Positions 16,501 to 64,000 of a stretch of DNA of 64,000 bases are shown in pieces. A model generated the notes under the pieces. That model saw only the letters and a program-made list of their open reading frames with translations, searched no databases and was not told the DNA's origin. The DNA lies in assembly GCA_027923505.1 (NCBI GenBank), contig BROI01000010.1:806001-870000 (forward strand), given 5' to 3'. Position 1 is the stretch's first letter. Each line of letters begins with the position of its first letter. A program made the position numbers and the translations under genes. This DNA is from Mayamaea pseudoterrestris. Taxonomy: Eukaryota.

Positions 16501-19500
16501 GACTTGCATCGGCTTCCCTTGAGGCGTTGGGTGATCTTGCTCGTGCTACTGGCATGTCGCTCATGCCTTGGGTGCACGATGTCATCCCTCATGTGCTTGA
16601 AATTATGCTTGATCAAAGTAGCGCAAGCAAGCAACGGACAAGTTTGCGTACACTTGGGCAGATCGCCGGATCAACGGCTTATGTTATCCGTCCCTACCTG
16701 GATTACCCCTCGCTTTTGTCGCAGGTAACGAGTATATTGCCTGCAACAAAGCGAGCACCATGGTCCCTCCGTCGAGAAGCTATGCGCACCCTTGGTGTTC
16801 TCGGTGCTCTGGATCCTGATAGGTATAATGGCGTCGATACGATGACGAGAAAAGCAGGCGCTGTTGGAGGTGCGTATTTTGAGGAGGTCGATCACCCTGG
16901 CGCTGACAGCAACGGGAGTGCAGCGAGGCTTCCTGCATCTGAAACTCGCCATGTCGATGTCGACGATGATCAGCCAGCTTACTTGTTCATGTATGAGCAA
17001 TATGCGATGGTGGCTCAGCCAGTGTCGACTTTGCCCCCGGCAAGAAGGCTAAGCCCGGCCAGCGATGAATTTTATCCGACTGTTGCCATTCAGGCTTTGA
17101 TGCGAGTATTCCGCGACCCGGCGCTGGCAGTGCATCACGGCATGGTTATTCAAGCGATTATGTTCATTTTTAACTCTCTTGGAATGGGCTGCGTTCCTTT
17201 TTTGCGGAAAGTTGTCCCTTACATGATTGGTCGCATACGCATGGCTGGTCCATCCGGCGTAAGAGAGTCGCTGCTCAAAGAGCTAGCCACTTTAAGCTTA
17301 ATTGTTCGTGAACATCTTCGGCCATATATTGCCGACATTTTTAATGTCGTTGAACAGTACTGGTCATCGAAACATTTGGCCACCGTCCTGAATTTAGTGT
17401 CGAAGACTGCGGTGGGGGTGCCCGATGAGTTTCGGCGTTTCGTGCCCCGCCTCATTCGATTGCTTCTTACTTCCCTTGATGAACTGCAAATCGCTGATTG
17501 GTCTGCTTCGATCTTTTTCTTTGCTGAAAAGGAGCGTCTTGAGGCGGAAAAGCTGGCCTTAATTTTAAAAAGCGTCAGCAATCTGAAATGCGTTCTCGGA
17601 GATTACCTACATGTTCTAGTCCCCGCTTTTCTAAAACTCGCCGATGCATTGGCTTCTATACTTCGGCAACAGGTTGAGGTGAACGAACCAGTTACATTGG
17701 AACTGTTGGTGCTTGTCTATCGGACAATTTCCTCGCTTGTGGATAGTCAGCGACCATCCGCTAGCCAAATGTCACGTTTATATTTTTCTGGCGATCAATA
17801 CTCTTTCCCGAGGAGTTCGGAGAATGGCCTGCCCTCTAGAGTTGTACAGCCTTTGCTGCGTGTTTTGAAAGTGAACCCGCCGAGAAGTCCCTCTGGTGCA
17901 TTGGCCATCGTTGAGACTTTGTGTGTGAGCGCAAGTCTAATCGGCGGTGTTAAGTGGGTCCAGCTTTACGATGGCTTTGTACGAGAGGCAATAGCCGATT
18001 GGCAAAAAAAATTTCCTGCTTTGAGCATCGGAAGCGACGCTTTACAGCCACATTCTTTCAAGGTTGACGATAGATCGTACACTTTACTAGACTTGTACGA
18101 TGATACAATCGAAGCGCTTTTGAAGCCACCTTCGCAAGTCTCTGGCGCCCTGGCGATACATCGAGCCACCTCAGTCTCTGCTGATGGTCCTCATCATCCG
18201 AGAATAGAAGTTTTAGCTGCAAGTCACGAAGGCTACGCTGAAGCTCGATTTCCAGCATTGCAAGGACCATCATCACAAAACCCTCAGCGCCGCGTCAACT
18301 TGACCAGCCTTCAACGTGCCTGGGATGTTTCACAGCGCTCGTCTCGTGACGACTGGGACGAATGGATGCGCCGGTTTGCTATACAGCTGCTCCGCGAAGC
18401 GCCATCCCCGGCATTGCGAGCGACGGCTAACTTGGCGCACGCGTATCAACCTTTGGCTCGCGAATTGTTCAGCGCAGCTTTCGCATGCTGCTGGAAGGAA
18501 CTTAGCCAGCCGTACCGGGTCAATCTTGTTGCTGCTTTAGAGACTGCCTTTGTGTCAAACGTGTCACCAGAAATCCTACAGCAATTGCTAAATCTTTGCG
18601 AGTTTATGGAGCATGACCAGAGCGGTGGTTTGCCTATCGGTATTCCGATTCTTGCCGATCTAGCGTTACATTGCAGAGCCTACGCAAAAGCTTTGCACTA
18701 TCGGGAGAGGGAATACAACCTTCAGCGGTCCAATAGCTGCGTCGAATCTTTAATTAGCATTAATCGCAAGCTAGACTTGCAGGATGCGGCTTTAGGAGTG
18801 TTAAAGGCATCAAGCATTGAGACCCTAGTGAAGGAGACTCGACCGATGCGAGTCGACTTGTCGCCTAACATGTCTGCTGATCACAAGTACGACTTGTTTT
18901 ACAGCGTCACATGGAGCACTGCGGATAGCGATATATCAGGATCAATAGACTTGACTGCAAGGCAAGAGTTATGGCTTATGAAGTTAGGATCTTGGTCAGA
19001 AGCCCTTGCTGTATATCAGAATAAATTGGACCATGATCCTGCTGACTTCGAATCGCTGCTTGGGTGCATGCGGTGTTTGGATGCGAGTGGGGAATGGCGT
19101 AGTGTGCTTGGGCTATTTCAGAAAAATTTGGCACCGGTAACATTCACAGGTGTTGCAGACAATGTAAATTTGCAGCTTCGAAATGATATACCGGCTCGCC
19201 TCAAGCGCAAGGCTATCCGTATGTGTGCGCATGCTGCATGGCGGCTTGGCCAATGGGATGACTTGGAGCAGTTTTCGTCGGAGATGGTGCGAGAACGGTC
19301 GTTTCCCAGTTCTTCCGCTGCAACCGTCGCTACTGGCCATGATGCCATTGCTTCTGCGGTTGATTACGATGGCGCTTTTTACAGTGCCGTCTTGCACGTG
19401 CATCGGAACGAGTGGCTTGAGGCAGCGGATGCTATTGATGCCGCAAGAAAGGCCATGGACTCGCGACTCACAGCGTTAATGGCCGAGTCATATAATCGCG

Positions 19501-22500
19501 CGTATCCGAGTATGGTGACCGCACAAACACTCGCAGAAATGGAAGAAATAATTGAGCTCAGAAAGGTTGAGGATCGCGCTAAGCATTCGGCGAATCAACA
19601 TCCAGCAAATCGTCCAAGCAAAGAAAATGCCAGAGAGCGACTTCTCGCCGTTTGGCGTGAAAGATTGGTTGGTTGCCGGGTTGATGCCGAGGTTCATGCG
19701 TCAGTTCTGGCCGTCCGGTCGTTGGTACTAGGCCCGGCCGATGAAGTGGAAGCTACAATACAGCTTAGTACTTTATCAAGACAGGCCCAGCGCTACAAAT
19801 TTGCAGAAAGAGTGTTGCTACGTCCACTTGCGGAGCTCGGAGCTGATCTTAACGGACCCATGTTTGGTTTTGGTTTGGCCGAAACACTTGGAGTTCGCAT
19901 GGGCTTTAATAAATTTGACACAAACTCCATAGCGACGCAGATTGACAAGGTCGTCGATTCTAGTGGTAAACCTGTCCTACCAATCTATGGTCCAAACCAC
20001 CAGCAATGGAGCAGAAACCTTGTGAACGAAGCAGGCGGCTACGATCGGTAAGTAATAAAAGTGGCTGGCGACGGCAATTTTAGGATTTGCGATGCTGACT
20101 TGTAGCTTTGAACAGATTGAATGTGCAGCATCGCCTTTACCTGGCTTATCTGAATCATTTGTGGTATACGGGTGCGCGAGGCGAGGCCATGAGTCGCTTA
20201 GAAAATTTATGTGACGCGGTTGATTTGGTTACTTTGTGCGAGGATGCTAGAGATAAAAGTTTGTGCGTGACTTGCTGGTTAGAACTCGGAGAATGGAAAC
20301 TGTCTCGGTCATGCACGCCGAATATGCCTATTGCGGACAGTACCCAGTTCAATGTGCTCGCTGCCTTCAAAAGGGCAACTACAATGGAAAATTGCGGCTA
20401 CCTTGCTTGGCATGCCTGGGCATTGTTCAACTTTCGGATAGCTATGCAGCTTGACGAGCAAGATAACGCTGTTGCGGATGGTGGCTATCGCGTCCGCGTT
20501 GACAGAAAGCAAAGGAATCATATCATTGCTGCCGTCAAGGGCTTTGTGAATGCCATCAGCATGGGACGTAAAAGGGAAAGCGCTTCTGTCCAGCAGGATC
20601 TTCTCAATTTGCTGACTTGTCTCTTTAAATATGGAGCTCTAACAGACGTGTCCAATGCCTTGAAAGAATGCGTTGGAGCAGTAGACCTTGAGGCGTGGCT
20701 AGGGGTCCTTCCACAGCTTCTTGCGCGAATTCATATGAAAGATTCTAATATCCGCACAATCCTTCACCCATTGCTGGTGCGACTCGGCCAAAAACATCCA
20801 CAAGCATTGATGTACCCTTTATCAGTACTGGTGAAGAGTCCTGTCGAGGAGCGAAAGGTGGCAGCGGAGAGTCTTATGAATACGCTGAAGGAGCACGCGA
20901 GTGCCCTTGTAGAGGAAGCACTCATGGTATCTTCCGAGCTCATTCGTATCGCTATTTTGTGGCTCGAAACGTGGCACGAAGGGTTAGAAGACGCATCACG
21001 ACTGTATTTTGTTGAAGGAAACGTTTCAGGAATGTTAGAGATTCTTCTGCCACTCCATGAGAAGGTTGAAGCTGGAGGTGAAACGATGCTCGAAGTCGAC
21101 TTTCTTGATAATTATGGGCATGACTTGGCGTCCGCTCACATGCATATTAAAGATTATATTCGCCTTGTTGTTGACGAGGGTGGTTCCTCCGTGCCTTCCG
21201 CGCGCCATCACAGACAAAGCGAAGAGGCAGAAGCTGCTATGAACAGGGCGTGGGATATATATTACACATTTTTTCGAAGAGTGAATAAACAATTACCTTC
21301 GCTCACTTCGCTCGAAATAAGCCAGTGCTCGCCAGCGTTATATCAAGCTAGAAGCCTTGAACTCGGCGTTCCCGGTACATATCGCGTCGATGGCTCATAT
21401 GTTAAGATCGACAAATTCATACCGCACGTCAGTGTTATAACAAGTAAGCAGCGACCGCGGAAAATAACTGTTCGCGGTAGTGACGGGAAAGACTACATGT
21501 TTTTACTTAAAGGGCATGAAGATCTACGTCAAGACGAACGCGTAATGCAACTATTCGGATTGGTGAACGCTCTTCTAGTTCGAGATCCGCAGACACGGAA
21601 ACAGGATTTGAAAATTCAGCGATATGCGATCTGTCCACTTTCACACAACTGCGGGATCGTTGGTTGGGTGCCGCACTCAGAAACACTTCATAGTTTGATT
21701 GTAAGTAACATAGTTGGTGTCGTGTGTTCATTTCACTCGCGGAATGCGTGTATGTGGACCTCACTCATTACCATGCTATCCAAATATGGTCACAGAGGGA
21801 CTACCGACAGTCAAAGAAAATCCCACTGAACATGGAGAATCGAGAAATGCTCAAGGTCAGAAGGAAAGAGTTTTGCTAAAGTTGCTTTTACCGCTTTGTA
21901 CTCACTCCGTTTCTTGGTCGCAGATTGCACCTGATTATGATTTGCTGACCGTCATGCAAAAGGTCGAGGTTTTCACGGCGGCTTCACGAAAAACGACGGG
22001 CAGAGGAAATGATTTGTATGAGATCCTTTGGCTAAAGAGTACCAACAGCGAAGAATGGCTTGAGCGGCGCACAAGGTATACGCGTAGCTTAGCCGTCATG
22101 TCCATCGTTGGCTACATTCTTGGACTTGGCGATCGTCATCCTTCCAACTTGATGATCGACAAGGTATCAGGAAGGGTATTGCATATTGATGTAAGTTTCG
22201 TTAAATTGTTAACATGGAATTGCTGTTTTATTGGTGACTCACTCGTCGTTGTATTGCCATATTGCTACTAGTTTGGTGACTGCTTTGATGTCGCCATGAT
22301 GCGCGACAAGTTCCCAGAGAAGGTTCCCTTTCGTCTCACTCGAATGCTGATCAAGGCCATGGAGGTGTCAGGAATCGAAGGTAGTTATCGGAGCACATGC
22401 GAACGAACCATGATGGTACTTCGGGAGAGTAGGGATTCGCTTGTCGCCATGCTTGAGGCATTTGTTTATGATCCATTGATTAGCTGGCGGCTTGCTGCCT

Positions 22501-30643: not shown

Positions 30644-33600
30644 ATGGCGCACCAATTGAACATTGGGCAGCTGCAGCAACTCATTGGAGGGACGCTGACT
30701 CCTGACCGAAACGTTAGCAAGGCGGGTGAGTATCTGATTATACAGAGATTGTAGTGAAACGCATTGCATTGGCCGCACCAATATTAAATTTGTAGCTCTC
30801 ACGCTTCTTGCTTGTTGCTTCTCATACAATTCCCACAGCGGAGCAGCAACTCCAAGAAGCTCAGCGCATTCCTGGATATCCTTTGATTGTCCTTCAGCTT
30901 GTTGCGGCGAATACGACGGATGTAGCGGTCCGTCAGGCCGCCGCTGTCAATTTCAAGAACCTTGTCAAAAAGGCATGGGACGAGCACCACGAGGATGGCA
31001 ATGACGGGATTGCCATTTCCTTGGACGATCGCAATACTATCAAGAGTCATTTGGTTCAACTCATGTGTACGGTACCTCCCATGATTCAGTCTCAGCTTTC
31101 CGAAACGATTAGTCTGATTGCTGCCGTAGATTATCCGCAGCAGTGGACAAACTTGATGCCAGAGCTCGTTCAGCAATTCAATCTTACGCAACCAACGATT
31201 CTAGTCGGAGTACTCAAGACGGCTAACTCTATCCTGAAGCGATTCCGCTATGTCACTCGAAGCGACGAGCTCTACACGGTGATTGCATACACGCTTCAGA
31301 ACATTCAAGCGCCGCTCTTGGCCTTGTTCAAGGCGCTCGGACAAGCGGTTGCGGCTGCTACGCAAAATGACACTCAACAATTGACAACGCATATGGAAGC
31401 ACTGCGACTGGTTTGTCGCATCTTTTACTCGCTTAATTATCAAGATCTGCCAGAGTTTTTTGAGGACCACATGAAGGAGTGGATGGACGACTTCGCCAAT
31501 TACTTGACTTATCACAATGCGGCCTTGGTCGATACGTCGGAGGAGGATGACCCAAGCCCCATTGACAAGTTGCAAGTTGCTATTATCAAAAACGTCGACT
31601 TGTATGCCGACAAGGATGAAGAGGCATTTTTGGTGTATTTGCCTCAATTCACAACGCTCATATGGAATTTGTTGTTGACCACGACGGCCTACCCCAAGCA
31701 CGATGAGTTGGTCACGACAAGCATTCGCTTTCTTTCGGGATTAGTGCAAAAGATTATGCACAAGAGTCTTTTTGCAGCGCCGGAAACCTTGCGACAGATT
31801 GTTTTGAATATTGTTATTCCAAATTTAATGTTTCGAGAAAGCGACGAGGAGCGCTTTAAGGGCGACCCGCGCGACTACATGATGACGGAGATTGAAGGAA
31901 GCGACTCTGAATCGCGACGCAAGTGTAGCCAGGACTTGCTTCGAAGCATGAATCGTCATTTTGAGACGGAAACGACGCAGATTTGCCAGGAGCATGTAGG
32001 CAATATGTTGGCCGAGTATGCCAAGGATCCGATTGGAAAGTGGGCGGCCAAGGATGCAGCGGTATGTATAGTCCGAATAGAGAGTGCTGTATTCGATTAC
32101 TTTTCATGCGTACAATGCTTACCCTTGTCCTTTTCTTCTTCACAATTTAGATCAACTTGGTCATGGGGGTCGCGATCCGCAAGGAGAGTGCGTCTGGCGT
32201 TGCCGAATTGAACAACGCCGTAAACATTATGGAATTCTTTCAAACCCAGATTTTCCCTGAGCTTCAAGACATGGAGCATATGCGTGTCCCCGTCGTCAAA
32301 GCCACGTCTATCAAGTTTGTCAGCACGTTTCGCAACCAGTTTAGTCGAGAGCAACATGGTCTGATTTTGCCAGTACTTATCAACCACCTCGGTTCACCCA
32401 TTGTCGTCGTGCACACATTCGCTGCCTACGCAATTGAACGCATCTTATTTACCAAGGAAGATGTTGATGGCCGCAAGCAGCCAAAGATTGGCGGCCCTGA
32501 ACTCCAGCCGGCATTGCAACCCTTGTTCAAGGGTCTCTTTGCATTGATTGATAAGTCTGACGCAAATGAGAATGACTACGTTATGAAATGTGTAATGCGA
32601 GCGCTCGTTACGCTTGGACCAGATGTTGCACCGGTGACGCAGGTTGTTATTGAAAAGTTGACTGCTGCTCTGGCTCGGGTCGCGAAGAATCCGCACAATC
32701 CGCAGTTTAACCATTGCTTGTTCGAGTCGATTGCTGTCTTGATTCGCTCAATGTGCTCCAACAATCCCAGCGCAACGGGCTCCTTCGAGCAGTTGCTTTT
32801 TGATCCATTTACGACGATTTTGCGCATGGATATTGGAGAGTTTACGCCTTACGTCATTCAAATCCTCGCCCAACTTTTGGAGTATCGTCCTGTCGGGTCA
32901 GGTCTCGGCCAGTCATACTCCAGTCTCTTCGAGCCTATACTGACACCTGTATTGTGGGAGCAGAAGGGAAATTTGCCGGCATTAACCCGCCTCATGCAAG
33001 CTTACATCAAGAAGGCTCCAGCTGATCTGATCCAGTACATCAATCAGATCCTAGGCGTGTTCCAAAAGCTCTTGTCGGTCCGTTCAACAGAAACATATGC
33101 TTTTGACGTCCTCACGTCAGCTGTCTTTTATCTCCCGGCCGAGCACATGGAACCAAAGATCCCTACGGTGTTCCAGATTCTTCTCGTCCGTCTGCAGGCC
33201 AGCACAACTGCACCTCGATACAAGCGTCTCATTTCTAACTTTTTCGCGTTATATGTCGCCAAACATTCTCCCAAGGTTTACATGGATCGCCTTGACGCCA
33301 TTCAGGTTGGATTGGGTGTGACGCTGCTCGAGCAAGTTTGGCTTCCGCGTCTTCAGACTGACCCTCCTTCCCAACATTTGGAAGCAAAGGCTCAAGTCGT
33401 TGCTTTGTCAAAATTGCTTTGCGATTACCCGCCGCTGTTGGCAGACTCCAAGGGTCAACAAATATGGATGGTTGGGATCGCAGCAACGATTAGGATCTTG
33501 ACGTCCGATCTTTTTAAGACGAGAGCTCAAGAGGGAGAGGAGGAAAGCGAAGCGCTAGAAATTGAGTACGACTCCAAGTTTTCTCTTCTTAAATATGCAT

Positions 33601-33785
33601 CCAAGCCAGCGGAAGACTACATCCCAGAGCATATTGACCCCGTGCGGCTGTTCGTTCATTCTCTTCACCGCCTTGTTTCGCCGCAGCCAGGGCAGTTGGC
33701 TCCACAACTCAAGGCCAATTTGGAGCCGCAACTTTTTAGTGGGCTCGAGACGATGTTCCAGAACGCAGGTTTGCAGCTGGTGTAA
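30644..33785 (+). CDS. CSE1: Exportin-2 / CSE1 (importin-alpha re-exporter)
   Basis: ATG 30644 (MAHQLNIGQLQQLIGGTL), intron 30726-30838, VRQAAAVNFKN (IBN_N), LNYQDLPEFFEDHM, EGSDSESRR, intron 32062-32150, ENDYVMKCVMR, NPQFNHCLFES. Confidence 0.96.
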
Positions 33786-47906: not shown

Positions 47907-50463
47907 TCAAATATCTTCCTCGTCATCGGCAACTGCTTGCAATGCCGTGAAAGCAGTGTCCGCCCAGTCGCTCGCGGAACCAGAATCCGATCTTTCGCAG
48001 CGGTGTGCACGAGGCTCGGCCGTCGACTTGCCGTCTTCCCTATTTTCCAGTTGAGCGACGCACATCTCTATTGCATCCGCAATCATGTAGTGAAGTTTAA
48101 TCATTGGGATGTGCCCATATGCTGCTACAGCTCCAGCTTGAAAGCAGTGATCCAAGTCGGCCTCCTTAGGGTCCGTGAATAACTTTGTATAATCCATCGG
48201 CCTTACCGAAGGCACAATTGTGGTGCTGCCTAGGAAGCGTTGAATAAACATTGTTTTCACCGGTCCTACCGCAGCGTCCATTTGATTAAGAAACGACATT
48301 TTCGCCTTCATGTCCGTCTTCAGATACATCTCCAGTGCGCTCAGTAGAAAACCTCCCCGGTAAGACGTCTCTTGCTTTCCCGACGACCAACGACTTGGCC
48401 TACCAACGCCGCCTTTGCTATTAAAAAAGAACGGAATGATATGCGGATTACATTGTGACGCAATGAAAAACTGACAGTTTAACATTTCACTGAGTCCTTG
48501 GGTCGGAATATCCTGCTGAATCGAACCATCCCAAAACGCCTGCTCCTTCTCGCCACCTTGATTGCGCACGGACCCATCTTCAAGTTTTACTTGCAAGCGC
48601 ACTGGCGGAACGAAACCAGGAACAGCAGCCGATGCAATCACTGCCGAGGCAATCGTCACGTTTGGCGCCGTAAGGTAATTAAGTAGCACCGGTGGACTCT
48701 TTTTGGACGTGGACGACAGCGTGATGCAAAAAATACGTCCCGTCTTCTGATAAGCTTCGTAAAATGTTGTTGATCCTTGCGAAAACCATTGTATAAGTTC
48801 CATCCACTCATCAAAGTCAAACATGCAGCCATTACGCAATACGCTCTTGATTCGATCCTTCCACGGACGACGAAAGCAGCAAAGCTTTTGCGACAGTATG
48901 CCTGGCTGCAGGTCTCGTTTCAGCTCCTCGTCGGTTCGCGTGCATATAATAGCCCCAATGACGCTGCCTGCCGACGTGCCGCTGATAATTCGAGGCAAGC
49001 ACCCTGCCTCGAGGAGCGCCGAAATGACTCCGAAGTGGTATAAACCCTGCGAAAGCGGACGAGGACAAAAGAGCAGTTGAGAAATCGATACAATACAATC
49101 AATTTAATTCTCTTCTTGAACAACGTACGAGCATGGCCCCACCCGACATGCAAAATGCGGTTCTTCCATAGGCTGCCCTCGCTCGCTTAAGAAACATGAG
49201 AACTTGTCCTCGATGAAAAACTGGCAAGGGTTTACTATTGAAATTACTGTCATGTTTAGAATCGCCATTTGAATTGGGCGCCAAGTCCTCCCACAAATGA
49301 CCGCTGCTGCTGCCATGCCCATTCGCATCGTAATGGTCACCATTTTCGTTGTATTCGCCGTTGATGTCACGCGGGTCGTGAATCGTCGCATCAATCAACG
49401 AACCAAAAAGCTTGGTTTTTTCGTCGCGCACTTTGCTTTGGAGAAGCTGCTCATAGTCCAGTAACTCGCGACTGGACATGTCTGCATTATCTCTCGTGGT
49501 TTGCTCGACACTTCTTGCGCCATCGGTGATCCAGTGCAGGGTCTCCACTACTTCGCTGACAAACTTTCTGACAATCGTCTTTGGTTCCCCAGTATTCGAA
49601 TAGCTAAACAAGTCTTCCGACATGATGCCGCCAACATTTTTGCGTGTGCATTGCTGCAAAACGGCCAAGGCGAGAATGGAATCGTTATTCTCTCGCGCCA
49701 GCCTCAAATCCTTAACCAACTCCAATATAAATCCCCAATTGTACTCGTGGGAAGTTTCATCGTCAACGCGATCCAGCCACTTTTGACGATGCTGCGATGC
49801 GTCGAGCTTCTTGGCGTGTATTTGCCACTCGTCATAGCTATTGGCAGCTTTCATGAGTTTGCGTAGTTTGCGATGCTTGGGACGTGCAATGAGATATTCG
49901 GCGCACATGATTCCAATTCGAATAACGACGTACACCAACAATTCGACCCAAATTAAAAAGTAAACGAGCCCCAGCAGCGGCCACCGCAAAACTTTAGCGC
50001 TAATGCCATGCAATCGCCCCGGCGTGACGGAGCAAATAGCCAAGACAACGAGAATTCCTCCAAAACTCTTCCATAAGAAAACTCCGACCTTCCAATCCAT
50101 CAGCGGCCATTCGCGGCTAAACCACTTGGCCCATGACTCCTTCGCTCGACTCGAATTCGTGTATTGCTGCAGCATGTCATTCATATTGGTAATAAGCTCA
50201 TTCCGACTGACGGTTCCATCGCCATTGGTGTCTAAATGCTTCAACCAGACTTCAGCAATTGACGTCTTGTTTTCACCTTCCATATACTGATGCCAAAGGT
50301 CTCCGAGGGTTGGCATGTCATTGTAGTAATGCGTCGTCCATTTGGGCAAGACAAAGTTGCAGACGGAAGAAATGATAGATTTGGTGTAATGGTAGGAACT
50401 TTGAAGGATGGAGCCTGTAGAATTGGAAATAGATGCTGCTTTGACTGCTGCAATGGCCGCCAT
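47907..50463 (-). CDS. Patatin-domain triacylglycerol lipase (SDP1/TGL3-5 family) with N-terminal EF-hand motif and TM segments
   Basis: A..Y.EW...A..LD, AYGRTAFCMSGGAML|GLYHFGV, LPRIISGTSAG (GxSxG), LLNYLTAPNV.IASAV.ASAAVPG, FWDGS, FIASQCNPHI.PF. One intron near 49.05-49.13 kb. Start at ATG 50463 is likely but uncertain. Confidence 0.93.
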
Positions 50464-58848: not shown

Positions 58849-59366
58849 GGTGAGGCGAGCAAGAAGAGATTGGAAAGTTGTGTGGAAGGAGTTGGCGTTT
58901 TTGCAATTGGCGAAACCAGATCCAACGCAAGGCACGCTTGGAGTCGGAAGCAATCATCCGTTGAATGAACGAGTTCTAAGTACCTGTTCTCAACGGAGAG
59001 GCGGCCGGTCGACGACACACATTATCGTACCAAAACCCTAACTGTCGTCAAACAAGCGAATTCGAAACATCGAAACTGCGGCATGCATGCATCTCACGAA
59101 ACGAGTGGAGGAAGGGACCATGGCGTCCAGGGAGGTAAGACTGACAGCATTGACAAGCAATATGATTAAAATGTTGTTGATGTCTGCAGCTGACAATTTT
59201 GTGATGGTCATCCATCTGCATGAAGCCTTCGTTTGATTCTTGCCTCTGACTTTTTTATCATCTCCCCAATATTCTTTGCAAACGAATTTTCATTTCTACT
59301 AAAAAGGAAAAGGAGGAATTACCGTCAAAGGAGGAATTAACAGTAGATACAGACAAAACGCCGACC

Positions 59367-60683
59367 ATGTCTGATACGGAGCAAGCCGGGGATGAGATGG
59401 CGGTCGACGAGCAGCAGACGGACAGCGGAGCTGTTGTGGATTTTGCCGACAATTCAAATTCCTCATCGGAGAAGAGACGCGTTTTTGTTGGAAACCTTTC
59501 CTGGAAAACGTCATGGCAAGACTTGAAGGACTACATGAGCACGGCTGGCTTGAACGTTATCCGCGCCGACGTTTTAATCAATGCAGACGGTCGATCGCGC
59601 GGGTGTGCAATTGTAGAATTTGCTACGCCCGAAGAGGCGGCACAGGCTGTCTTGACCTTAAATGACTCGGAGCTTGATGGAAGACAAATCTTTGTGCGAG
59701 AAGATCGAGAGGATCGAGTTGGACATACCCCGGCACCTCACCGCATAGGAAGCGCTCGACCAGCCAGCGGAAGTCGTAGGTTTTCATCGGGCGATCAGAG
59801 TCATCGCGTCTATGTCGGCAATTTGAGTTACGAAGTTGCCTGGCAAGACTTGAAGGACCACATGAAGCAAGCCGGCGATGTGGTGCATGCAGAAGTAATG
59901 ACGGATTCTCATACGGGACGCAGCAAAGGTTGCGGCATTGTCGAGTTTCGTAGCAAGCAAGACGCTGATGCTGCAATTGAAACTCTTACCAATTCGGAAC
60001 TTTACGGACGCACGATTTTTGTCCGCGAGGATCGAGAGATGTCGACGGCCAAAACGGGCAGCGCTGATGGATCCCGCGAAACTGGTTATCGCAACTCGAA
60101 TCCGTCTGTCTACGTTTGGAATTTGTCGACTGAAACAAGCTGGCAGGATTTGAAAGATCACATGCGTCGGGCTGGCAATGTGGATTCGGCCACCATCTTC
60201 ACCAAGAACCATGACGAGTTAAATGCTGGTATTGTTGTATATCAACGCCCGCAAGATGCTGCCCGAGCAATTCGCGAGTTGCAAGGAACTGAGCTCCACG
60301 GTATGCCGCTCAATTTGCGCGAGGATCGCATGCCGTCTGGCAGCAGCGGTCGAGGCACAAGTGGTAGACGTGGCGATGGTAGCCACGGTGCAGGACGCGG
60401 CCGTGGTGGTCGAGGAGAGGGTCGAGGTCGTGCTTTTGCCGGTGGGCGAGTTGAGTCTGTGCCTGATGAACGAGTGGTTGTAGTTTCAAACTTGGCAAGC
60501 GCAACGACGTGGCGCGAGCTTAAGGATCACTTTCGTGAGTGTGGCGATGTTCGGCGTGTAAATGTGGGGTTCGACGGAACAGGGATTGTCTCTTTTGGAT
60601 GCAAGGAAGATGCCGCCACTGCAGTTGACGCCATGAATGGAAGCGAGCTACAGGGAAGCATTATTGAAGTGCACCACCGCTAA
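59367..60683 (+). CDS. Four-RRM RNA/G-strand-binding protein (Gbp2/Hrb1/hnRNP M-like) with RGG linker
   Basis: VFVGNLSWKTSWQDLKD, RSRGCAIVEF, GRQIFVREDRE repeated; RGG segment GRGRGGRGEGRGR; fourth RRM at the C-terminus. Confidence 0.92.
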   Translation: MSDTEQAGDEMAVDEQQTDSGAVVDFADNSNSSSEKRRVFVGNLSWKTSWQDLKDYMSTAGLNVIRADVLINADGRSRGCAIVEFATPEEAAQAVLTLNDSELDGRQIFVREDREDRVGHTPAPHRIGSARPASGSRRFSSGDQSHRVYVGNLSYEVAWQDLKDHMKQAGDVVHAEVMTDSHTGRSKGCGIVEFRSKQDADAAIETLTNSELYGRTIFVREDREMSTAKTGSADGSRETGYRNSNPSVYVWNLSTETSWQDLKDHMRRAGNVDSATIFTKNHDELNAGIVVYQRPQDAARAIRELQGTELHGMPLNLREDRMPSGSSGRGTSGRRGDGSHGAGRGRGGRGEGRGRAFAGGRVESVPDERVVVVSNLASATTWRELKDHFRECGDVRRVNVGFDGTGIVSFGCKEDAATAVDAMNGSELQGSIIEVHHR

Positions 60684-60913: not shown

Positions 60914-62023
60914 TTATTTTATACGTGGCGATGCTTTGTCTGACTTCAATCTCGTGTTGACGAGCGCACTCAGAATGAATGGGACAGCGAAGGCGAACAT
61001 AATAGCTCCTCTCTTCGGCGCAAAGCCTAATGGGTAAACTGTTTGTCCAATGCCGACGAGAAAAGCCCAAATTCCCACCATAACGTTTAACTGTATGAAG
61101 GTTGTTCCCTGCAGTCGATCGCGCTCAGCTGCATCCTTGAGCGAGTAGATGATGGTAGAAATCATAAACAGACGAGCGACAGCCGACCAATGCAAACTGA
61201 TCTCAAAGGCTCCAATCGCGAGGTGACTGGCATATCGAACATTAAAAATGCCATCCAATAGACTTGATACACCCGCGATTGAAACTAACACAAAAGCATT
61301 ACGAAACAGCGCGCCCTTGTGCTTGACTCGAAGTCCTAGTAAAGTTTCCTTCGTATCTTGCGCAAAGTCTTGAATTAGTGTTCTAGGGCTGGCTTTGCCG
61401 CCCAATCCTTGAACCCACCCACTATACGCAGCAAAAGCTCCCAGTAATCTTACTATCGTTGCAACGAGAGACAAGAGTAAAGCGGGGACAAAGGTTGGAA
61501 GGAATCCTGCTTCTCCTGGAACTGCAGCCAGACTCATGAGCGAGAATCCAAGTAGTCCAATGTTGAGACGCTTGTAGGTAACGCTCTTTAATCGATCATG
61601 ATTTGTAGCTCCTTGGAGAATATAGCAGAGCCCCGACGCAATTCCGTAGCCTGCAGCTCCTCCCAATTTGGAGGAAACCATAGTGTTGACAGTGTGATCC
61701 GGCATGACGAGCAAGACAGCTCCCATGAATCCAAACATGTAGCTTGCCATTCGGTAAATCTTTGACAGATTTTTCGTTCGACTTTTGATGCTATTGCTGT
61801 TGTCTTGCTGTTTGTGTTCATTGTCGTTGCTGGCGCCGTGTAAAGAGACCGAGCAGAGGCGAGGTTGATCATGGTAACGTCGTTCCTTCCAGGCTAAAGG
61901 ATGAGATATACTGGTAAATTGTAAAGCTACTTTTTCAGTTCCATGCCTATTAGAGATTTTATTGGTGACGAAGGCTTGTGCAAATGGAGGACAAAGAATC
62001 AGCAGCGACCGCAGAATCCTCAT
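60914..62023 (-). CDS. Predicted plastid multi-pass membrane protein of unknown function
   Basis: Signal peptide + AQA-FVT, a transit-like segment, about 8 hydrophobic helices, and a duplicated motif L..A...DRL...T...LN. Confidence 0.8.
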   Translation of the reverse strand: MRILRSLLILCPPFAQAFVTNKISNRHGTEKVALQFTSISHPLAWKERRYHDQPRLCSVSLHGASNDNEHKQQDNSNSIKSRTKNLSKIYRMASYMFGFMGAVLLVMPDHTVNTMVSSKLGGAAGYGIASGLCYILQGATNHDRLKSVTYKRLNIGLLGFSLMSLAAVPGEAGFLPTFVPALLLSLVATIVRLLGAFAAYSGWVQGLGGKASPRTLIQDFAQDTKETLLGLRVKHKGALFRNAFVLVSIAGVSSLLDGIFNVRYASHLAIGAFEISLHWSAVARLFMISTIIYSLKDAAERDRLQGTTFIQLNVMVGIWAFLVGIGQTVYPLGFAPKRGAIMFAFAVPFILSALVNTRLKSDKASPRIK

Positions 62024-62394
62024 GGTGGAACGAGGAAGTGTGATCGGAAGGTGCGAGATGGTTGATCATCGTGTCGTACTGGTTCACTTTCAGTATTTTG
62101 AAATGAGTACAAGAAATGTGCCGTTCTTCATATGCCTCGGATACCTTTTATATATGCCTGAATTTTGTATACGATTTAAAGTAGAGTTTGGATCCCGCAG
62201 GACCACTTTGTGACTCGTCCGGCGCGTGCATGTCTTCCGTCACGTGGCCTCGCCAAGTGAGAGGTGCGCTTGTTAATTGTCACCATGCCAATCGTTGCCT
62301 CCAACCATTGACGCGATCAACGCATTGCATTCATTCGATCTTTATATTTTGGCTTGGAGGCAGAGAGAGTCTTTAAAATTCATTGTTACCAAGC

Positions 62395-64000
62395 ATGAAG
62401 AGTTTCTTGCTCGTTCTGCTGCTCTCGACAGTGACAGCGACTACAGTCGATCGACAAGATGTTGGTGTCGAGGCATCCGCTGCAATCCAAGGACTGCTGC
62501 AGCAGGTTCGCTTCAAAGTCGCAAGTCTACTGGACAATGGAGCCAAAAGAGAAGCGATGAATGACAATGAAGGTCATGCGCAGGCGCTTATTGAATGGGT
62601 TCGATCCAAAACCAAGGCGAATGTTTATGAGCATCTAGAAGCTCGGCCATCTTCGTCAGTGCAGCAGCAATATGCATTGTATGCAACAACTACCATTCCA
62701 GCGAATACATTATTGTTTGAAATTCCGCAGGATCTCGTCATGACCCCGACTCGTATTGAGATTGATGACCGCGTTCAAGTGGAGTGGAATGATGATCATG
62801 AATACAACTACGGTCACGTTACGCGCGATCATGGCGATACTATGGATGTTCACTTTGACGATGATTCCGTTCATTCACTTGAACGAAGCTTGATTGAACA
62901 TGAAGCTTTTCCCGTCAATTGCGGAACCATTCAGCGACTAGTCCAAGAGATTCTTCTCGGCGACTCGAGCAAGTTTGCTCCTTATGTCAACTATTTAAAG
63001 AATCAACCACGTGGCCAGTTACCGGCTGATTGGAGCGAAGCAGGCCAGGATTTATTAAAAATGCTGATGGGATATGAAAGTAACAAAGAATTCGCTCTGC
63101 TTCCGCCGGAATCTTCCTTTGACTGGCTCAAAGAAGACTGGCGAGTCCGTTGCGGTCGACGCGGGGACGATGTTTCTAGTCTAGCATACTACACTTACGT
63201 GCAGCGAAGCTCTGACCAGGTTCTTGTTCCAGTACTCGATATGCTATTGCACTCAAATGCTCCTGATGAGCTGAATACGCGGACTGGACCTATTCGCAAT
63301 GGACGACGGCCAGTCAAGGTATTTTCCTCGCGCGAGATACAAGCAGGTGAAGCTTTGTACGCATCCTACAATCAATGCGCGGATTGCCAAAACAAAAACC
63401 ATATTGGCACGCCAGAACTGCTGCGTGAGCATGGCTTTGTGGAGGATTATCCGCAGCGTTGGATCTTGAGCGACGAAAATGTGGTATCCTTTGACCTGGT
63501 GCCTGAGACGATTGTTGGTATGGATGGAGCTACAATGAAGCAGATCTCGGTAAAATGGATTGATAAGCGGCCATCGCGAAAAAGTTTTGCCTATATGAAA
63601 AATCAGCTACAGCGACTGGCCGACTTTTGCGAAACGGAGCTTGTGTCGTTGGATCCGTCCATTCCTCCGCAAGAACTTGACGTGATTCTGCAATATTTGG
63701 ACGCCACCACGACGGCACTCTCACTTGCTATTAATGCATCGCCATCATCCCATACGTCTAGTATAGATTGTCGCGACACGAATACTTGCGATTTGGATCG
63801 CTTCGACCGATACGAGTCACTTGTTCCGAAGCAAGAGGTTTGGGGCGACGAGCGGCCAGCGACGTGCAACTCTAAGCGGGAGTATGTATTTAACACATGG
63901 GAAACAATTGACGAAGTCAATTCGCGCTATCAAGGAGTTACTTTCTCGGTGAATAATCAAATCAATGACATGTGCTTTGACCTTGACAACGTCGTGCAAA
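62395..64000 (+). CDS. Secreted SET-domain protein with Tudor-like insertion, fused to the start of an aminopropyltransferase (spermidine/spermine synthase-like) domain; partial
   Basis: Stop-free frame from ATG 62395 to the window edge, so it is missing from the ORF track. MKSFLLVLLLSTVTA (signal), LIEWVRS...LYATTTIPANTLLFEIP, SKFAPYVNYL, VLVPVLDMLLH, IQAGEALYASY, LLREHGFVE, then EVNSRYQGVTF...DMCFDLDNVVQ. Confidence 0.85.
   Translation, partial: MKSFLLVLLLSTVTATTVDRQDVGVEASAAIQGLLQQVRFKVASLLDNGAKREAMNDNEGHAQALIEWVRSKTKANVYEHLEARPSSSVQQQYALYATTTIPANTLLFEIPQDLVMTPTRIEIDDRVQVEWNDDHEYNYGHVTRDHGDTMDVHFDDDSVHSLERSLIEHEAFPVNCGTIQRLVQEILLGDSSKFAPYVNYLKNQPRGQLPADWSEAGQDLLKMLMGYESNKEFALLPPESSFDWLKEDWRVRCGRRGDDVSSLAYYTYVQRSSDQVLVPVLDMLLHSNAPDELNTRTGPIRNGRRPVKVFSSREIQAGEALYASYNQCADCQNKNHIGTPELLREHGFVEDYPQRWILSDENVVSFDLVPETIVGMDGATMKQISVKWIDKRPSRKSFAYMKNQLQRLADFCETELVSLDPSIPPQELDVILQYLDATTTALSLAINASPSSHTSSIDCRDTNTCDLDRFDRYESLVPKQEVWGDERPATCNSKREYVFNTWETIDEVNSRYQGVTFSVNNQINDMCFDLDNVVQ

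Follow-up and report, generated by a model that had tools for sequence, protein, structure and literature searches.

A candidate secretory SET–aminopropyltransferase fusion with a Tudor-like barrel and an AdoMetDC-like region in the diatom Mayamaea pseudoterrestris

The enzymes that make the long-chain polyamines of diatoms, and that attach methylated oligo-propyleneimine chains to the lysines of silaffins, are still a gap. A stretch of 64,000 nucleotides of Mayamaea pseudoterrestris (contig BROI01000010.1, positions 806,001 to 870,000; "the window") breaks off inside an open frame that bears on this gap, and the question is what the frame encodes and on what its product would act. An earlier note on this DNA had proposed a secreted fusion of SET, Tudor and aminopropyltransferase domains. 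We find a clean candidate gene, probably expressed and intron-less, with confident structure models, from which four predictions follow: an active aminopropyltransferase, a dead, non-self-cleaving decarboxylase, a protein substrate held by a Tudor-like barrel and a lumenal location. The gene is one of many paralogues, and what it adds is a sharper set of hypotheses; the system itself is of a kind already known.

The open frame and its gene

A frame that starts with ATG at 62395 on the forward strand stays open for 535 codons, up to the end of the window. Codon 536 opens with base 64000, and the frame passes beyond the window. An in-frame TAA lies upstream of the ATG (62374-62376), and the chance of 535 stop-free codons is about (61/64)^535, or ~7e-12 (GC ~47%). 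The frame had been reported as missing from the list of open reading frames; it is real, and it was missing because the list includes frames without an end inside the window only under an open-ended setting, where it appears as 62383..63999 (+), 539 aa counted from a TTG, with its first ATG at 62395.

The predicted gene model P0006 (1300 aa) is identical to the window frame over all 535 residues (Table 1). The window frame is the 5' 41% of a diatom nuclear gene that is probably expressed; an end of the frame right after the window, which would have spoken against the fusion, did not occur, as P0006 continues to 1300 aa. The region downstream of base 64000 is known here from this gene model, not from DNA. 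All four relatives that carry an organism name are from diatoms.

Two contigs, X4 (62299..64000) and X5 (62302..64000), cover the frame with no joint inside it. Both also contain a GT..AG joint in the neighbouring gene, and because of this spliced joint we read them as cDNA-like. The X5 contig has 3996 letters (93 + 3903) and extends 2297 letters past the window, which is the exact length still needed for the coding sequence. The contigs, which cannot give the true RNA start and whose runs both come from one study, suggest that the gene is transcribed; they look cDNA-derived, and the gene is probably without introns. The stretch from ~62023 to 62298, between two divergent genes, is covered by neither contig.

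Table 1. Features of the gene within the window (all positions are those of the window)
Feature	Residues or codons	Position	Strand	Basis
Candidate 5' leader		62299..62394	+	On the same contigs as the frame (X4, X5)
Coding sequence	Codons 1-535 of a 1300-codon gene	62395..63999	+	100% identity, 100% cover to P0006
Putative cleavable signal peptide, MKSFLLVLLLSTVTA	1-16	62395..62442	+	Hydrophobicity heuristics
SET domain, split by an insert	93-326	62671..63372	+	Pfam PF00856
Tudor-like five-strand beta barrel within the SET domain	119-171	62749..62907	+	Structure model, VIA
Predicted C-terminal lobe of an LSMT/SETD6/SETD3-type methyltransferase	327-461	63373..63777	+	VIA alignments span it
Linker with Cys, low model confidence	462-492	63778..63870	+	pLDDT 48-64 over 451-500
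Start of the aminopropyltransferase, N-terminal beta-sheet part	493-535	63871..63999	+	PRK00811, phmmer, model

Domains encoded within the window

The predicted order of domains in P0006 is a signal peptide, two helices, a SET domain with the Tudor-like barrel inside it, a linker, an aminopropyltransferase, a first AdoMetDC-like half, an alpha/beta domain and a second AdoMetDC-like half. The protein was modelled in two overlapping parts, residues 1-535 (pLDDT 85.1, pTM 0.78) and residues 500-1300 (pLDDT 88.7, pTM 0.90; residue 1 of this second model is P0006 residue 500). An alignment of 117 of 155 proteins, made up of all those below 660 aa plus 14 long ones, went into the structure modelling. 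The full order is common to 42 relatives of at least 1000 aa on many contigs. The family comprises 765 representatives at 50% identity, and the phmmer family of the window protein includes many SET-only proteins of 300-600 aa.

The N terminus has the form of a signal peptide: MK is followed by a hydrophobic core of 11-12 residues and by V-T-A, with a polar stretch after the V-x-A, and the best 9-aa Kyte-Doolittle mean is 2.88, at residue 5. A 19-aa window of at least 1.6 occurs nowhere in P0006, so that a membrane anchor is not predicted. Direct reading of residues 12-25 finds no F, W, Y or L and thus no plastid-type +1 residue; these heuristics agree with the claim of a signal peptide lacking the plastid F(+1) motif. 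An N-terminal hydrophobic segment is present in 97 of the 148 Met-started family proteins. P0006 has 18 Cys and 9 N-x-S/T sequons, and many of the Cys are invariant across relatives; C465 and C491 fall inside the linker and C459 just ahead of it. Because of the N-terminal hydrophobic segment, the lack of any other hydrophobic span, the Cys and sequons and the invariance of many Cys, the protein is probably a lumenal protein of the secretory pathway.

The SET domain is recognized by Pfam (PF00856, residues 93-326, E 3.7e-6, 27.7 bits against a cut-off of 22.4), and the LSMT-type fold of the model bears out its description as Rubisco-LSMT-like. Foldseek matches range from 8e-8 to 6e-6 in E and include SETD3 (3smt, 8.3e-8) and LSMT (1mlv, 4e-7). 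In VIA, the best matches are SETD6 (3qxy_A, Z 20.1, residues 59..450), LSMT (1mlv_A, Z 19.5, residues 56..461) and SETD3 (6mbj_A, Z 18.8, residues 56..460), with the next unrelated class, SMYD, at Z ~10. The likeness to LSMT, SETD6 and SETD3 covers residues 56-461 with 303-310 residues aligned, and in the model the two-lobe architecture of this group, a SET lobe with a C-terminal substrate-binding lobe, is fully kept. Identity, however, is only 12-16%. At the sequence level, the C-terminal lobe has no Pfam match (E up to 1 for residues 1-535 and up to 10 for P0006), and a phmmer search of residues 1-535 against PDB sequences returned 0 matches at E up to 1. Unlike these methyltransferases, the window protein has a signal peptide, a Tudor-like insert, a Leu in the "NH" motif and a fused aminopropyltransferase.

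SET domains are marked by an "NH" motif and by a Tyr close to their C-terminal end. In this family, H286 hardly varies. It is preceded by Leu here (DMLLHSN) and by S or N in most relatives (DMMSHRN, DMMNHRN), and with Leu in place of the Asn of the motif the SET methyltransferase may be weakened. The window protein has the Tyr (Y325); its nearest relative, P0007, has F at that place.

The titles of the matched entries bear on the likely substrate. SETD3 was solved with an actin peptide and SETD6 with a RelA peptide, LSMT is entitled a SET-domain protein methyltransferase, and the match in fourth place is a subunit of a plastid RNA polymerase complex.

The insert that splits the SET domain is predicted to fold as a barrel, with strands at residues 126-130, 137-145, 149-154, 159-163 and 167-169 (pLDDT 85-95). 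In VIA, the Tudor domain of MTF2 (5xfr_B) matches it with Z 8.5 and an rmsd of 1.4 over 49 residues, followed by the Tudor domains of PHF19 (6wau, Z 8.4), 53BP1 (3lgf, Z 7.9) and SMN (4qq6, Z 7.9); across all Tudor matches, the rmsd is 1.4-2.2 over 49-54 residues. A Z near 8 is middling in VIA, where values under 8 are common, and KOW, PWWP and SH3-like barrels score about equally (Z 7.4-8.1). As modelled, the barrel resembles those of the Tudor "royal family" (MTF2, PHF19, 53BP1, SMN) in having five strands and a size of ~50 residues; unlike theirs, it lies inside the SET domain of a predicted lumenal protein.

Sequence searches with residues 112-180 alone (62728-62934) gave no significant match in Pfam (best TOBE_2, E 0.11) or in the PDB (best MORN1, 0.093, and a cold-shock protein, 0.56). 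Among relatives, 7 of 29 have Tudor-family matches in the insert, all below cut-off, the best being P0030 (PTM_DIR17_Tudor, 26.1 bits against 27.2); P0007 matches Tudor_2 at E 0.057. The family consensus of the insert, VGDRV...G.itav..DgtyDv.yDDG, resembles Tudor signatures, and W131, Y136/Y138, F154 and D155-157 presumably occupy the pattern positions of residues that form the Tudor aromatic cage for a methyl-ammonium ligand. For the proposed Tudor domain, support comes from the barrel fold of the model, with Z ~8, and the insert has no significant sequence match. The model suggests a resemblance to methyl-lysine readers. Counted as residues between alignment anchors, 31 of 139 anchored family rows have the insert, and 27 of these 31 belong to one well-supported group of 41.

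Aminopropyltransferase and AdoMetDC-like domains

Still within the window, and in the same uninterrupted frame as the SET domain, the aminopropyltransferase starts at about residue 493-505. NCBIfam PRK00811 matches from residue 493 (E 2.7e-26), and phmmer aligns residues 505-673 of P0006 with the spermidine synthase of P. falciparum (4uoe, E 7.7e-14). The motif at the window edge had been likened to the N-terminal beta domain of spermidine/spermine synthases, and rightly: S.YQ and LD..VQ align to 4uoe within residues 505-535, the last complete codon of the window being the Q of LD..VQ (Q535), and the model places strands at 503-509, 514-520 and 525-530 (pLDDT 84-90).

Beyond the window, Pfam Spermine_synth (PF01564) matches residues 543-684 (E 8e-19, 68.3 bits against a cut-off of 22.9) and GGGD is found at residues 566-569. 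The second model aligns with spermidine synthases from P0006 residue 500 (Z 20-22, 232-240 residues), among them 2e5w_A (Z 22.3, rmsd 2.5, 236 residues). A downstream sequence without the aminopropyltransferase fold or a GGGD motif, which would have told against the fusion, is therefore not what this Pfam match, motif and fold match reveal.

GGGD binds decarboxylated AdoMet, and the Asp of the DSSD motif is catalytic. Q535, Y544-H545, GGGD566-569, E589, D619 and D641-L-S-E644 align with conserved residues of the P. falciparum enzyme, and at least 80% of the 42 long relatives have both GGGDS and DLSET conserved. Judged by these residues, the aminopropyltransferase domain looks competent. It shares with spermidine synthase/SpeE (PF01564) the fold, GGGD, the catalytic Asp and the cofactor-binding residues. 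It differs in its acceptor-site motif, which is DLSET here and DSSDP in spermidine synthases, in the loop that follows, and in its setting within a predicted secreted multi-domain protein. The NCBIfam equivalog cut-offs are missed (PRK00811, 92.5 bits against 260; TIGR00417, 68.9 against 249.55), so we regard the domain as a relative of SpeE and not as an orthodox SpeE.

After the aminopropyltransferase, two AdoMetDC-like halves flank an alpha/beta domain. Human AdoMetDC (1msv_A) matches across both halves (Z 13.6, 225 residues aligned, second-model residues 265..788), and other matches of this fold are 5tvf_E (Z 12.0), 1vr7_A (Z 10.9, 114 of 120 residues aligned) and 2iii_A (Z 10.6). Pfam AdoMet_dc (PF02675) reaches 16.2 bits on P0006, below its cut-off of 25 (E 0.013). 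Three relatives pass this cut-off, P0010 (42.5 bits), P0009 (27.9) and P0119 (25.1), which makes homology of the AdoMetDC-like domain likely. Of the three domains for which a Pfam search had been proposed, SET and Spermine_synth are thus above cut-off, and SAM_decarbox (AdoMet_dc) is below it, though the fold matches.

In AdoMetDC, self-cleavage between Glu and Ser gives the pyruvoyl group, and His68 and Cys83 (T. maritima numbering) take part. In the alignment, the "EG" of the family falls on E62-S63 of the proenzyme of T. maritima (1tlu), so that Ser63 is replaced by Gly; 1tmi differs from 1tlu only by an A at position 63. Opposite H68 of T. maritima the family has Q or R, and opposite C83 it has W. 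Taken alone, the alignment to the T. maritima enzyme has an E of 0.78, but the Pfam and fold matches point the same way. At least 80% of the 42 relatives retain "EGY", and P0006 has E826-G827. With glycine in place of the pyruvoyl serine, decarboxylase activity is very unlikely; from its sequence the decarboxylase looks dead, and a protein with such an AdoMetDC-like part would be unable to supply its own decarboxylated AdoMet.

An AdoMetDC fold without pyruvoyl chemistry has precedents in the T. brucei prozyme (AdoMetDC/prozyme entry 5tvf_E; see above) and in the N-terminal domain of human spermine synthase, both of which are inactive. In P0006, unlike in these, the predicted halves are in one chain with an alpha/beta domain of ~210 residues between them, and they come after the aminopropyltransferase and not before it. 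The pairing of the two halves is a prediction from the fold match; hhalign between them gives P 2.4e-4 and a probability of 44%.

The middle alpha/beta domain spans about residues 915-1125. It had no Pfam match at E up to 10 and no usable match in the ESM Atlas, and hhalign against the aminopropyltransferase domain gave P 0.42. The fold-search lists for the second model were filled by the aminopropyltransferase, so that the middle domain was barely probed.

Proposed function and alternatives

We propose that the protein is a secretory enzyme whose aminopropyltransferase and SET domains act on silaffin-type lysines and chains, and we give this reading a probability of about 0.5. Located in the lumen of the ER, the Golgi or the silica deposition vesicle, the aminopropyltransferase domain would add aminopropyl units from decarboxylated AdoMet onto amine acceptors, and the SET domain would N-methylate the same acceptors using AdoMet. 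The acceptors would most likely be lysine side chains of silaffin-type wall proteins together with the oligo-propyleneimine chains growing on them, and the protein substrate would be held by the Tudor-like barrel together with the SET module's C-lobe. The two AdoMetDC-like halves would form a single sandwich that has lost its catalytic activity and works as a scaffold or ligand-binding module, in which case decarboxylated AdoMet must come from another enzyme. We favor a protein substrate because three of the four closest SET folds are protein methyltransferases by title and because the barrel matches methyl-lysine readers. A role in long-chain polyamine formation or the silica wall is, for this gene as for the whole class, one that we infer.

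The acceptors could instead be free polyamines. The protein would then be a synthase and N-methylase of free long-chain polyamines, its aminopropyltransferase lengthening free diamines or oligoamines and its SET domain methylating their secondary amines, with no protein substrate; a literal reading of the earlier note gives this alternative. The kept catalytic residues of the aminopropyltransferase fit this arrangement, as does the presence of the polyamine aminopropyltransferase of T. thermophilus (1uir_A, Z 21.2) among the top fold matches. However, three of the four closest SET folds (SETD3, SETD6 and LSMT) are protein methyltransferases by title and their two-lobe architecture is kept, the Tudor-like barrel suggests a peptide ligand, and a protein with a dead AdoMetDC would make a poor self-contained polyamine factory. 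We consider free polyamines a possible but somewhat unlikely substrate.

A quite improbable alternative is a lumenal protein methyltransferase unrelated to silica, in which the aminopropyltransferase-like and AdoMetDC-like parts serve only for binding or as a scaffold, with no transfer. Such a protein would account for an AdoMetDC-like part that is already degenerate, for the altered acceptor-site motif and for an NCBIfam score far under the equivalog cut-off (92.5 bits against 260). Yet at least 80% of the 42 relatives retain GGGD, the catalytic Asp and the remaining cofactor-binding residues, which argues for selection on catalysis. A link to wall formation also speaks against it, at the level of the gene class: according to passages of a study of Seminavis robusta (bioRxiv 10.1101/2020.11.23.393678), the expression of 24 diatom-specific SET genes and of 8 AdoMetDC-aminopropyltransferase genes is highest at cytokinesis, together with that of silica-vesicle genes. 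That expression link concerns relatives and is tied to the window gene by gene class only.

It is extremely improbable that P0006, a predicted gene model, is wrong past the window (through an intron, a two-gene fusion or a pseudogene) and that the SET and aminopropyltransferase domains are not one protein, given that the aminopropyltransferase starts at residues 493-535 of the same uninterrupted window frame, that the 42 relatives of at least 1000 aa share the whole domain order, that the cDNA-like contig of 3996 letters goes past the window by exactly the 2297 letters still needed and that residues 500-1300 are modelled with a pTM of 0.90.

The preferred reading, a secretory enzyme acting on silaffin-type lysines, has a bolder form, a writer-reader of the secretory pathway, which we regard as speculative and on balance unlikely. 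Here, the barrel would bind silaffin-type proteins at lysines on which methylation or aminopropylation has already begun, and so tether the enzyme, the SET and aminopropyltransferase sites would work processively on neighboring lysines and on the growing chain, and the split, dead AdoMetDC sandwich with its alpha/beta insert would bind, hand over or sense decarboxylated AdoMet. If this were true, the attachment of polyamine chains to silaffins would fall to the barrel-bearing subfamily (31 of 139 rows).

The earlier note had assigned the gene to the diatom class of SET/aminopropyltransferase/AdoMetDC fusions, and the Pfam and fold matches yield the same domain set, which supports the assignment. 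This class is already in print, and by its predicted domains the gene is a further member of it, with a decarboxylase-like part that is inactive as judged from the alignment. The 2011 abstract of Michael reportedly describes fusions of a different arrangement whose AdoMetDC is catalytically dead and one of which also has a Tudor domain, and is said to propose silaffin modification. Our full-text literature search returned no paper joining a Tudor domain, silaffin and polyamine and nothing on a catalytically dead AdoMetDC, and in the literature we found no assay, localization or knock-out for the window gene or any member of the class.

As cited in PMC3820600 and PMC12029483, diatom fusions of AdoMetDC, aminopropyltransferase and a histone-type N-methyltransferase were described by Michael (2011, FEBS Lett 585:2627); on this account, they are like the window gene in domain set, in diatom host and in the proposed long-chain polyamine role. 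Passages of PMC3820600 and PMC12803844 have the class in print since 2011 and biochemically uncharacterised, and in the latter, from 2025, diatom aminopropyltransferase fusions are listed as still needing study and a single Nitzschia species is credited with 32 of them. When proteins of at least 1000 aa are labelled as fusions on the SET-region tree, 35 changes are needed; many short rows may be fragments, so we read neither gains nor losses of the fusion from the tree.

Diatom SET proteins have themselves been tied to wall formation, and passages of PMC11151724 and bioRxiv 10.1101/2020.11.23.393678 suggest that they act on wall proteins and long-chain polyamines. The seven diatom SET genes of Nemoto (2020, Mar Biotechnol 22:551), as portrayed in work that cites them, resemble the window gene in encoding diatom SET proteins and are linked to wall formation, and compared with their products the window gene encodes 765 further residues of aminopropyltransferase and AdoMetDC-like domains.

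Extent of the fusion gene and its aminopropyltransferase

The fusion gene opens at the first ATG of its ORF (62395) and runs stop-free for 535 codons to the last complete codon of the window (P0001, the window part of the protein), with an in-frame TAA 19 bases 5' of the ATG. By our own arithmetic at the local GC of 45-50%, the chance of such a stop-free frame is ~7e-12, and the open frame claimed in an earlier note is real; it was missing from the ORF track because frames running off the window are omitted by default. P0006, the full gene model of 1300 aa, was obtained by searching longer proteins and is 100% identical across all 535 window residues; it is labeled as the gene product of the window itself, on a contig of 1,067,527 bases.

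At the window edge, the earlier note had recognized a spermidine synthase-like motif, S.YQ...LD..VQ. This motif is covered by a phmmer alignment of P0006 residues 505-673 with Plasmodium falciparum spermidine synthase (E 7.7e-14), which starts inside the window. In addition, an NCBIfam model for polyamine aminopropyltransferase aligns from residue 493 onward (E 2.7e-26, with a score far below the equivalog cut-off), Spermine_synth of Pfam covers residues 543-684 (E 8e-19), and GGGD occupies residues 566-569, just beyond the window end. The length of P0006 and the Spermine_synth and GGGD matches therefore dispose of both outcomes that the earlier note had set against its own proposal: (i) a frame ending right past the window and (ii) downstream sequence lacking an aminopropyltransferase fold.

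A model of residues 500-1300 made from 42 long relatives (pLDDT 88.7, pTM 0.90) matched spermidine synthases in Foldseek at E ~1e-12, and fold alignment of residues 500-745 gave Z 20-22 and rmsd 2.5-3.0 over 232-240 residues. Compared with the P. falciparum enzyme, the fusion protein keeps Q535 of LD..VQ (its codon is the last complete one of the window), Y544-H545, GGGD, E589 and D619, and it has D641-x-S-E644 where the parasite enzyme has D-S-S-D. Both GGGDS and DLSET are conserved in at least 80% of the 42 long relatives. The roles given here to catalytic residues of the aminopropyltransferase, AdoMetDC-like and SET modules are those we take to hold from the structural literature.

Public sequencing runs supplied contigs matching the window. 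Those from X4 and X5 lack a 172-base GT..AG stretch that is read through in X1 and X2, a probable intron directly upstream of the neighboring four-RRM ORF. Because they skip this stretch, we read the X4 and X5 contigs as cDNA-like, the run type not being on record. They match 62299..64000 (X4) and 62302..64000 (X5) with no joint, and the X5 contig has 3996 letters, equal to 93 upstream plus 3903 for 1300 codons with stop. This fits an intron-less fusion gene, the contig agreement being by length only. Relative to the window, X2 has T>C at 62626 (Y78H), and X1, X4 and X5 have T>C at 63536 (M381T); the X2 differences at 63762 and 63939 are silent.

SET module and its Tudor-like insert

The Pfam SET domain (residues 93-326) scores above the curated cut-off. 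An AlphaFold2 model of residues 1-535 made from 117 family sequences was confident (mean pLDDT 85.1, pTM 0.78), and its top Foldseek matches were SETD3, Rubisco LSMT and SETD6 (E 8e-8 to 6e-6). An independent structure aligner returned SETD6 (Z 20.1), LSMT (Z 19.5), SETD3 (Z 18.8) and a plastid RNA-polymerase-associated SET protein (Z 18.2), each with 303-317 residues aligned within model residues 56-461; SMYD was the next class at Z ~10. These matches together bear out the description of the domain as Rubisco-LSMT-like, and the alignment to residue 461 places the C-terminal lobe of LSMT-type enzymes in the protein as well. A phmmer search of residues 1-535 against PDB sequences gave no matches. 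His286 and Tyr325 are present, His286 being preceded by Leu (Ser or Asn in most relatives).

Between conserved Pro111 and Cys176, the model contains five strands at pLDDT 85-95. In fold alignment this piece (residues 119-171) resembles several Tudor barrels, namely MTF2 (Z 8.5, rmsd 1.4 over 49 residues), PHF19 (Z 8.4, 54 residues aligned), 53BP1 (Z 7.9) and SMN (Z 7.9), as well as KOW, PWWP and SH3-like barrels (Z 7.4-8.1), values of ~8 being middling by the aligner's own guidance. Residues 112-180 searched alone had no significant sequence match in Pfam or PDB sequences. Of the Tudor domain claimed earlier, the barrel fold is supported in the model and family membership is unproven, and we call the insert Tudor-like.

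The insert is not unique to this gene: it is at least 60 residues long in 31 of the 139 family rows (150 aligned) that have both anchor residues, and the inserts share the signature VGDRV...G.itav..DgtyDv.yDDG. Tudor-family Pfam matches fell inside it in 7 of 29 insert-bearing relatives scanned, all below cut-offs (best 26.1 bits against 27.2); in P0007, the closest relative, Tudor_2 matches at E 0.057. The strongest such set belongs to P0044, a SET-only protein of 514 aa from Thalassiosira exigua whose insert is a tandem double barrel, 125 residues long (Tudor_5 1.5e-4, PTM_DIR17_Tudor 1.6e-4, TUDOR 5.3e-3). On a FastTree made from SET-region columns outside the insert, insert presence required 10 changes, where shuffling the labels gave 28.3 and none of 500 shuffles went as low, and 27 of the 31 insert-bearing rows fall in a single well-supported group of 41.

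AdoMetDC-like module

Pfam gave a weak AdoMet_dc match at P0006 residues 786-868 (E 0.013, below cut-off). In the residues 500-1300 model, the human AdoMetDC proenzyme 1msv_A aligned over 225 residues (Z 13.6) spanning model residues 265..788, and a T. brucei AdoMetDC/prozyme entry covered that span at Z 12.0; the small T. maritima AdoMetDC gave Z 10.9. We read the model as two AdoMetDC-like halves, ~765-885 and ~1140-1295, that would pack into one sandwich resembling the internally duplicated eukaryotic AdoMetDC. The second half is weakly supported by sequence (hhalign P 2.4e-4, probability 44%). The alpha/beta domain between the halves had no family or fold match in Pfam, ESM Atlas or an hhalign comparison with the aminopropyltransferase domain; it is conserved, with four nearly invariant Cys.

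In the T. maritima proenzyme 1tlu, E62-S63 are matched by the family "EG", His68 by Q or R and Cys83 by W, in an alignment that has E 0.78 by itself and agrees with the fold match and with the Pfam AdoMetDC match of P0010 (42.5 bits), the relative in that alignment. A deposited mutant, 1tmi, is identical to 1tlu except for Ala at position 63. "EGY" is conserved in at least 80% of the 42 long relatives. Since no pyruvoyl group could form in the absence of the serine, we regard the module, on these aligned residues, as a presumably dead scaffold. At the C-terminus, long relatives share LRD.qPRG.GRVvnf followed by P.WA at the extreme end, which could act in sorting or folding.

The Michael 2011 abstract reportedly already mentions a dead AdoMetDC and a single Tudor domain. 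In the papers covered we found no description of (i) the split sandwich with an inserted domain, (ii) how far the subfamily with the Tudor-like insert extends or (iii) the residues that argue for an active aminopropyltransferase next to an inactive decarboxylase; the full text of Michael 2011 may have them.

Family, proposed function and surroundings

Searching 1.84 billion representatives with the 535 residues, phmmer found 765 proteins at E<=1e-3 and 161 at E<=1e-30. In a set of 154 family proteins, 45 are 1000 aa or longer, and GGGD and the whole domain order are common to 42 of these. Four relatives carry an organism name, and each comes from a diatom (Phaeodactylum tricornutum, Fistulifera solaris, Thalassiosira exigua, Entomoneis); their labels read "predicted" or "hypothetical protein" or, where a pipeline assigned them, "spermidine synthase". 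The diatom fusion class is already in print (Michael 2011, as paraphrased by PMC3820600 and PMC12029483), its functions are described as still uncharacterized in PMC6356823 and PMC12803844, and, according to a Seminavis robusta preprint, diatom-specific SET and AdoMetDC-aminopropyltransferase genes peak with wall formation. The fusion gene is a further member of this class, with a function that we only infer; both the observation and the interpretation of the earlier note stand.

The N-terminus (residues 1-16) resembles a cleavable signal peptide, and the protein has no other hydrophobic span. The plastid-type F is absent, as previously noted, and residues 12-25 lack F, W, Y and L altogether. 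A hydrophobic window similar to that of residues 1-16 is found at the N-terminus of 97 of 148 Met-started family proteins. The fusion protein has 18 Cys, many invariant among relatives, and 9 N-x-S/T sequons. In the mechanism we consider most likely, the protein would aminopropylate and N-methylate amine acceptors in the lumen in the service of the silica wall. For these acceptors, we give a probability of roughly one half to protein-bound lysines, favored because the SET module is of the protein-methylating type, the barrel is Tudor-like and the decarboxylase appears dead. The same three features count against free polyamines, which we consider the less likely choice.

Around the fusion gene lie genes of a kind usual in eukaryotic nuclei (TOR kinase, pescadillo, Cse1/CAS, four-RRM protein), with no silica-related genes among the surrounding window ORFs.

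Coordinates of the fusion-gene ORF, its unassigned domain and neighboring features
Feature	Position	Strand	Remarks
Fusion-gene ORF	62383..63999	+	Appears when frames with open ends are listed
Alpha/beta domain, ~210 residues	P0006 915-1125		Between AdoMetDC-like halves
369-aa ORF	60914-62023	-	Divergent to fusion gene, 371 bp from its ATG
Four-RRM ORF	59367-60683
GT..AG stretch	59133-59304		Probable intron
TOR-kinase ORF 1	13503-20051	+	mTOR domain and FAT
TOR-kinase ORF 2	20189-21829	+	FAT, FRB, PI3/PI4 kinase
Cse1/CAS exportin ORFs	31063-32211, 32163-33785	+	Overlapping, different frames
DUF3336 ORF	49099-50463	-	Adjoins patatin ORF
Patatin ORF	47907-48824	-	Partial domain

The 369-aa ORF matched no Pfam family; judged by eye it has several hydrophobic stretches, and an X4 contig match (60910..62022) lies over it. 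The TOR-type kinase is split in two ORFs with probably an intron or frame break between them, and the Cse1/CAS split suggests a short intron or frameshift. The DUF3336 and patatin ORFs are probably a single patatin-like lipase gene with an intron.
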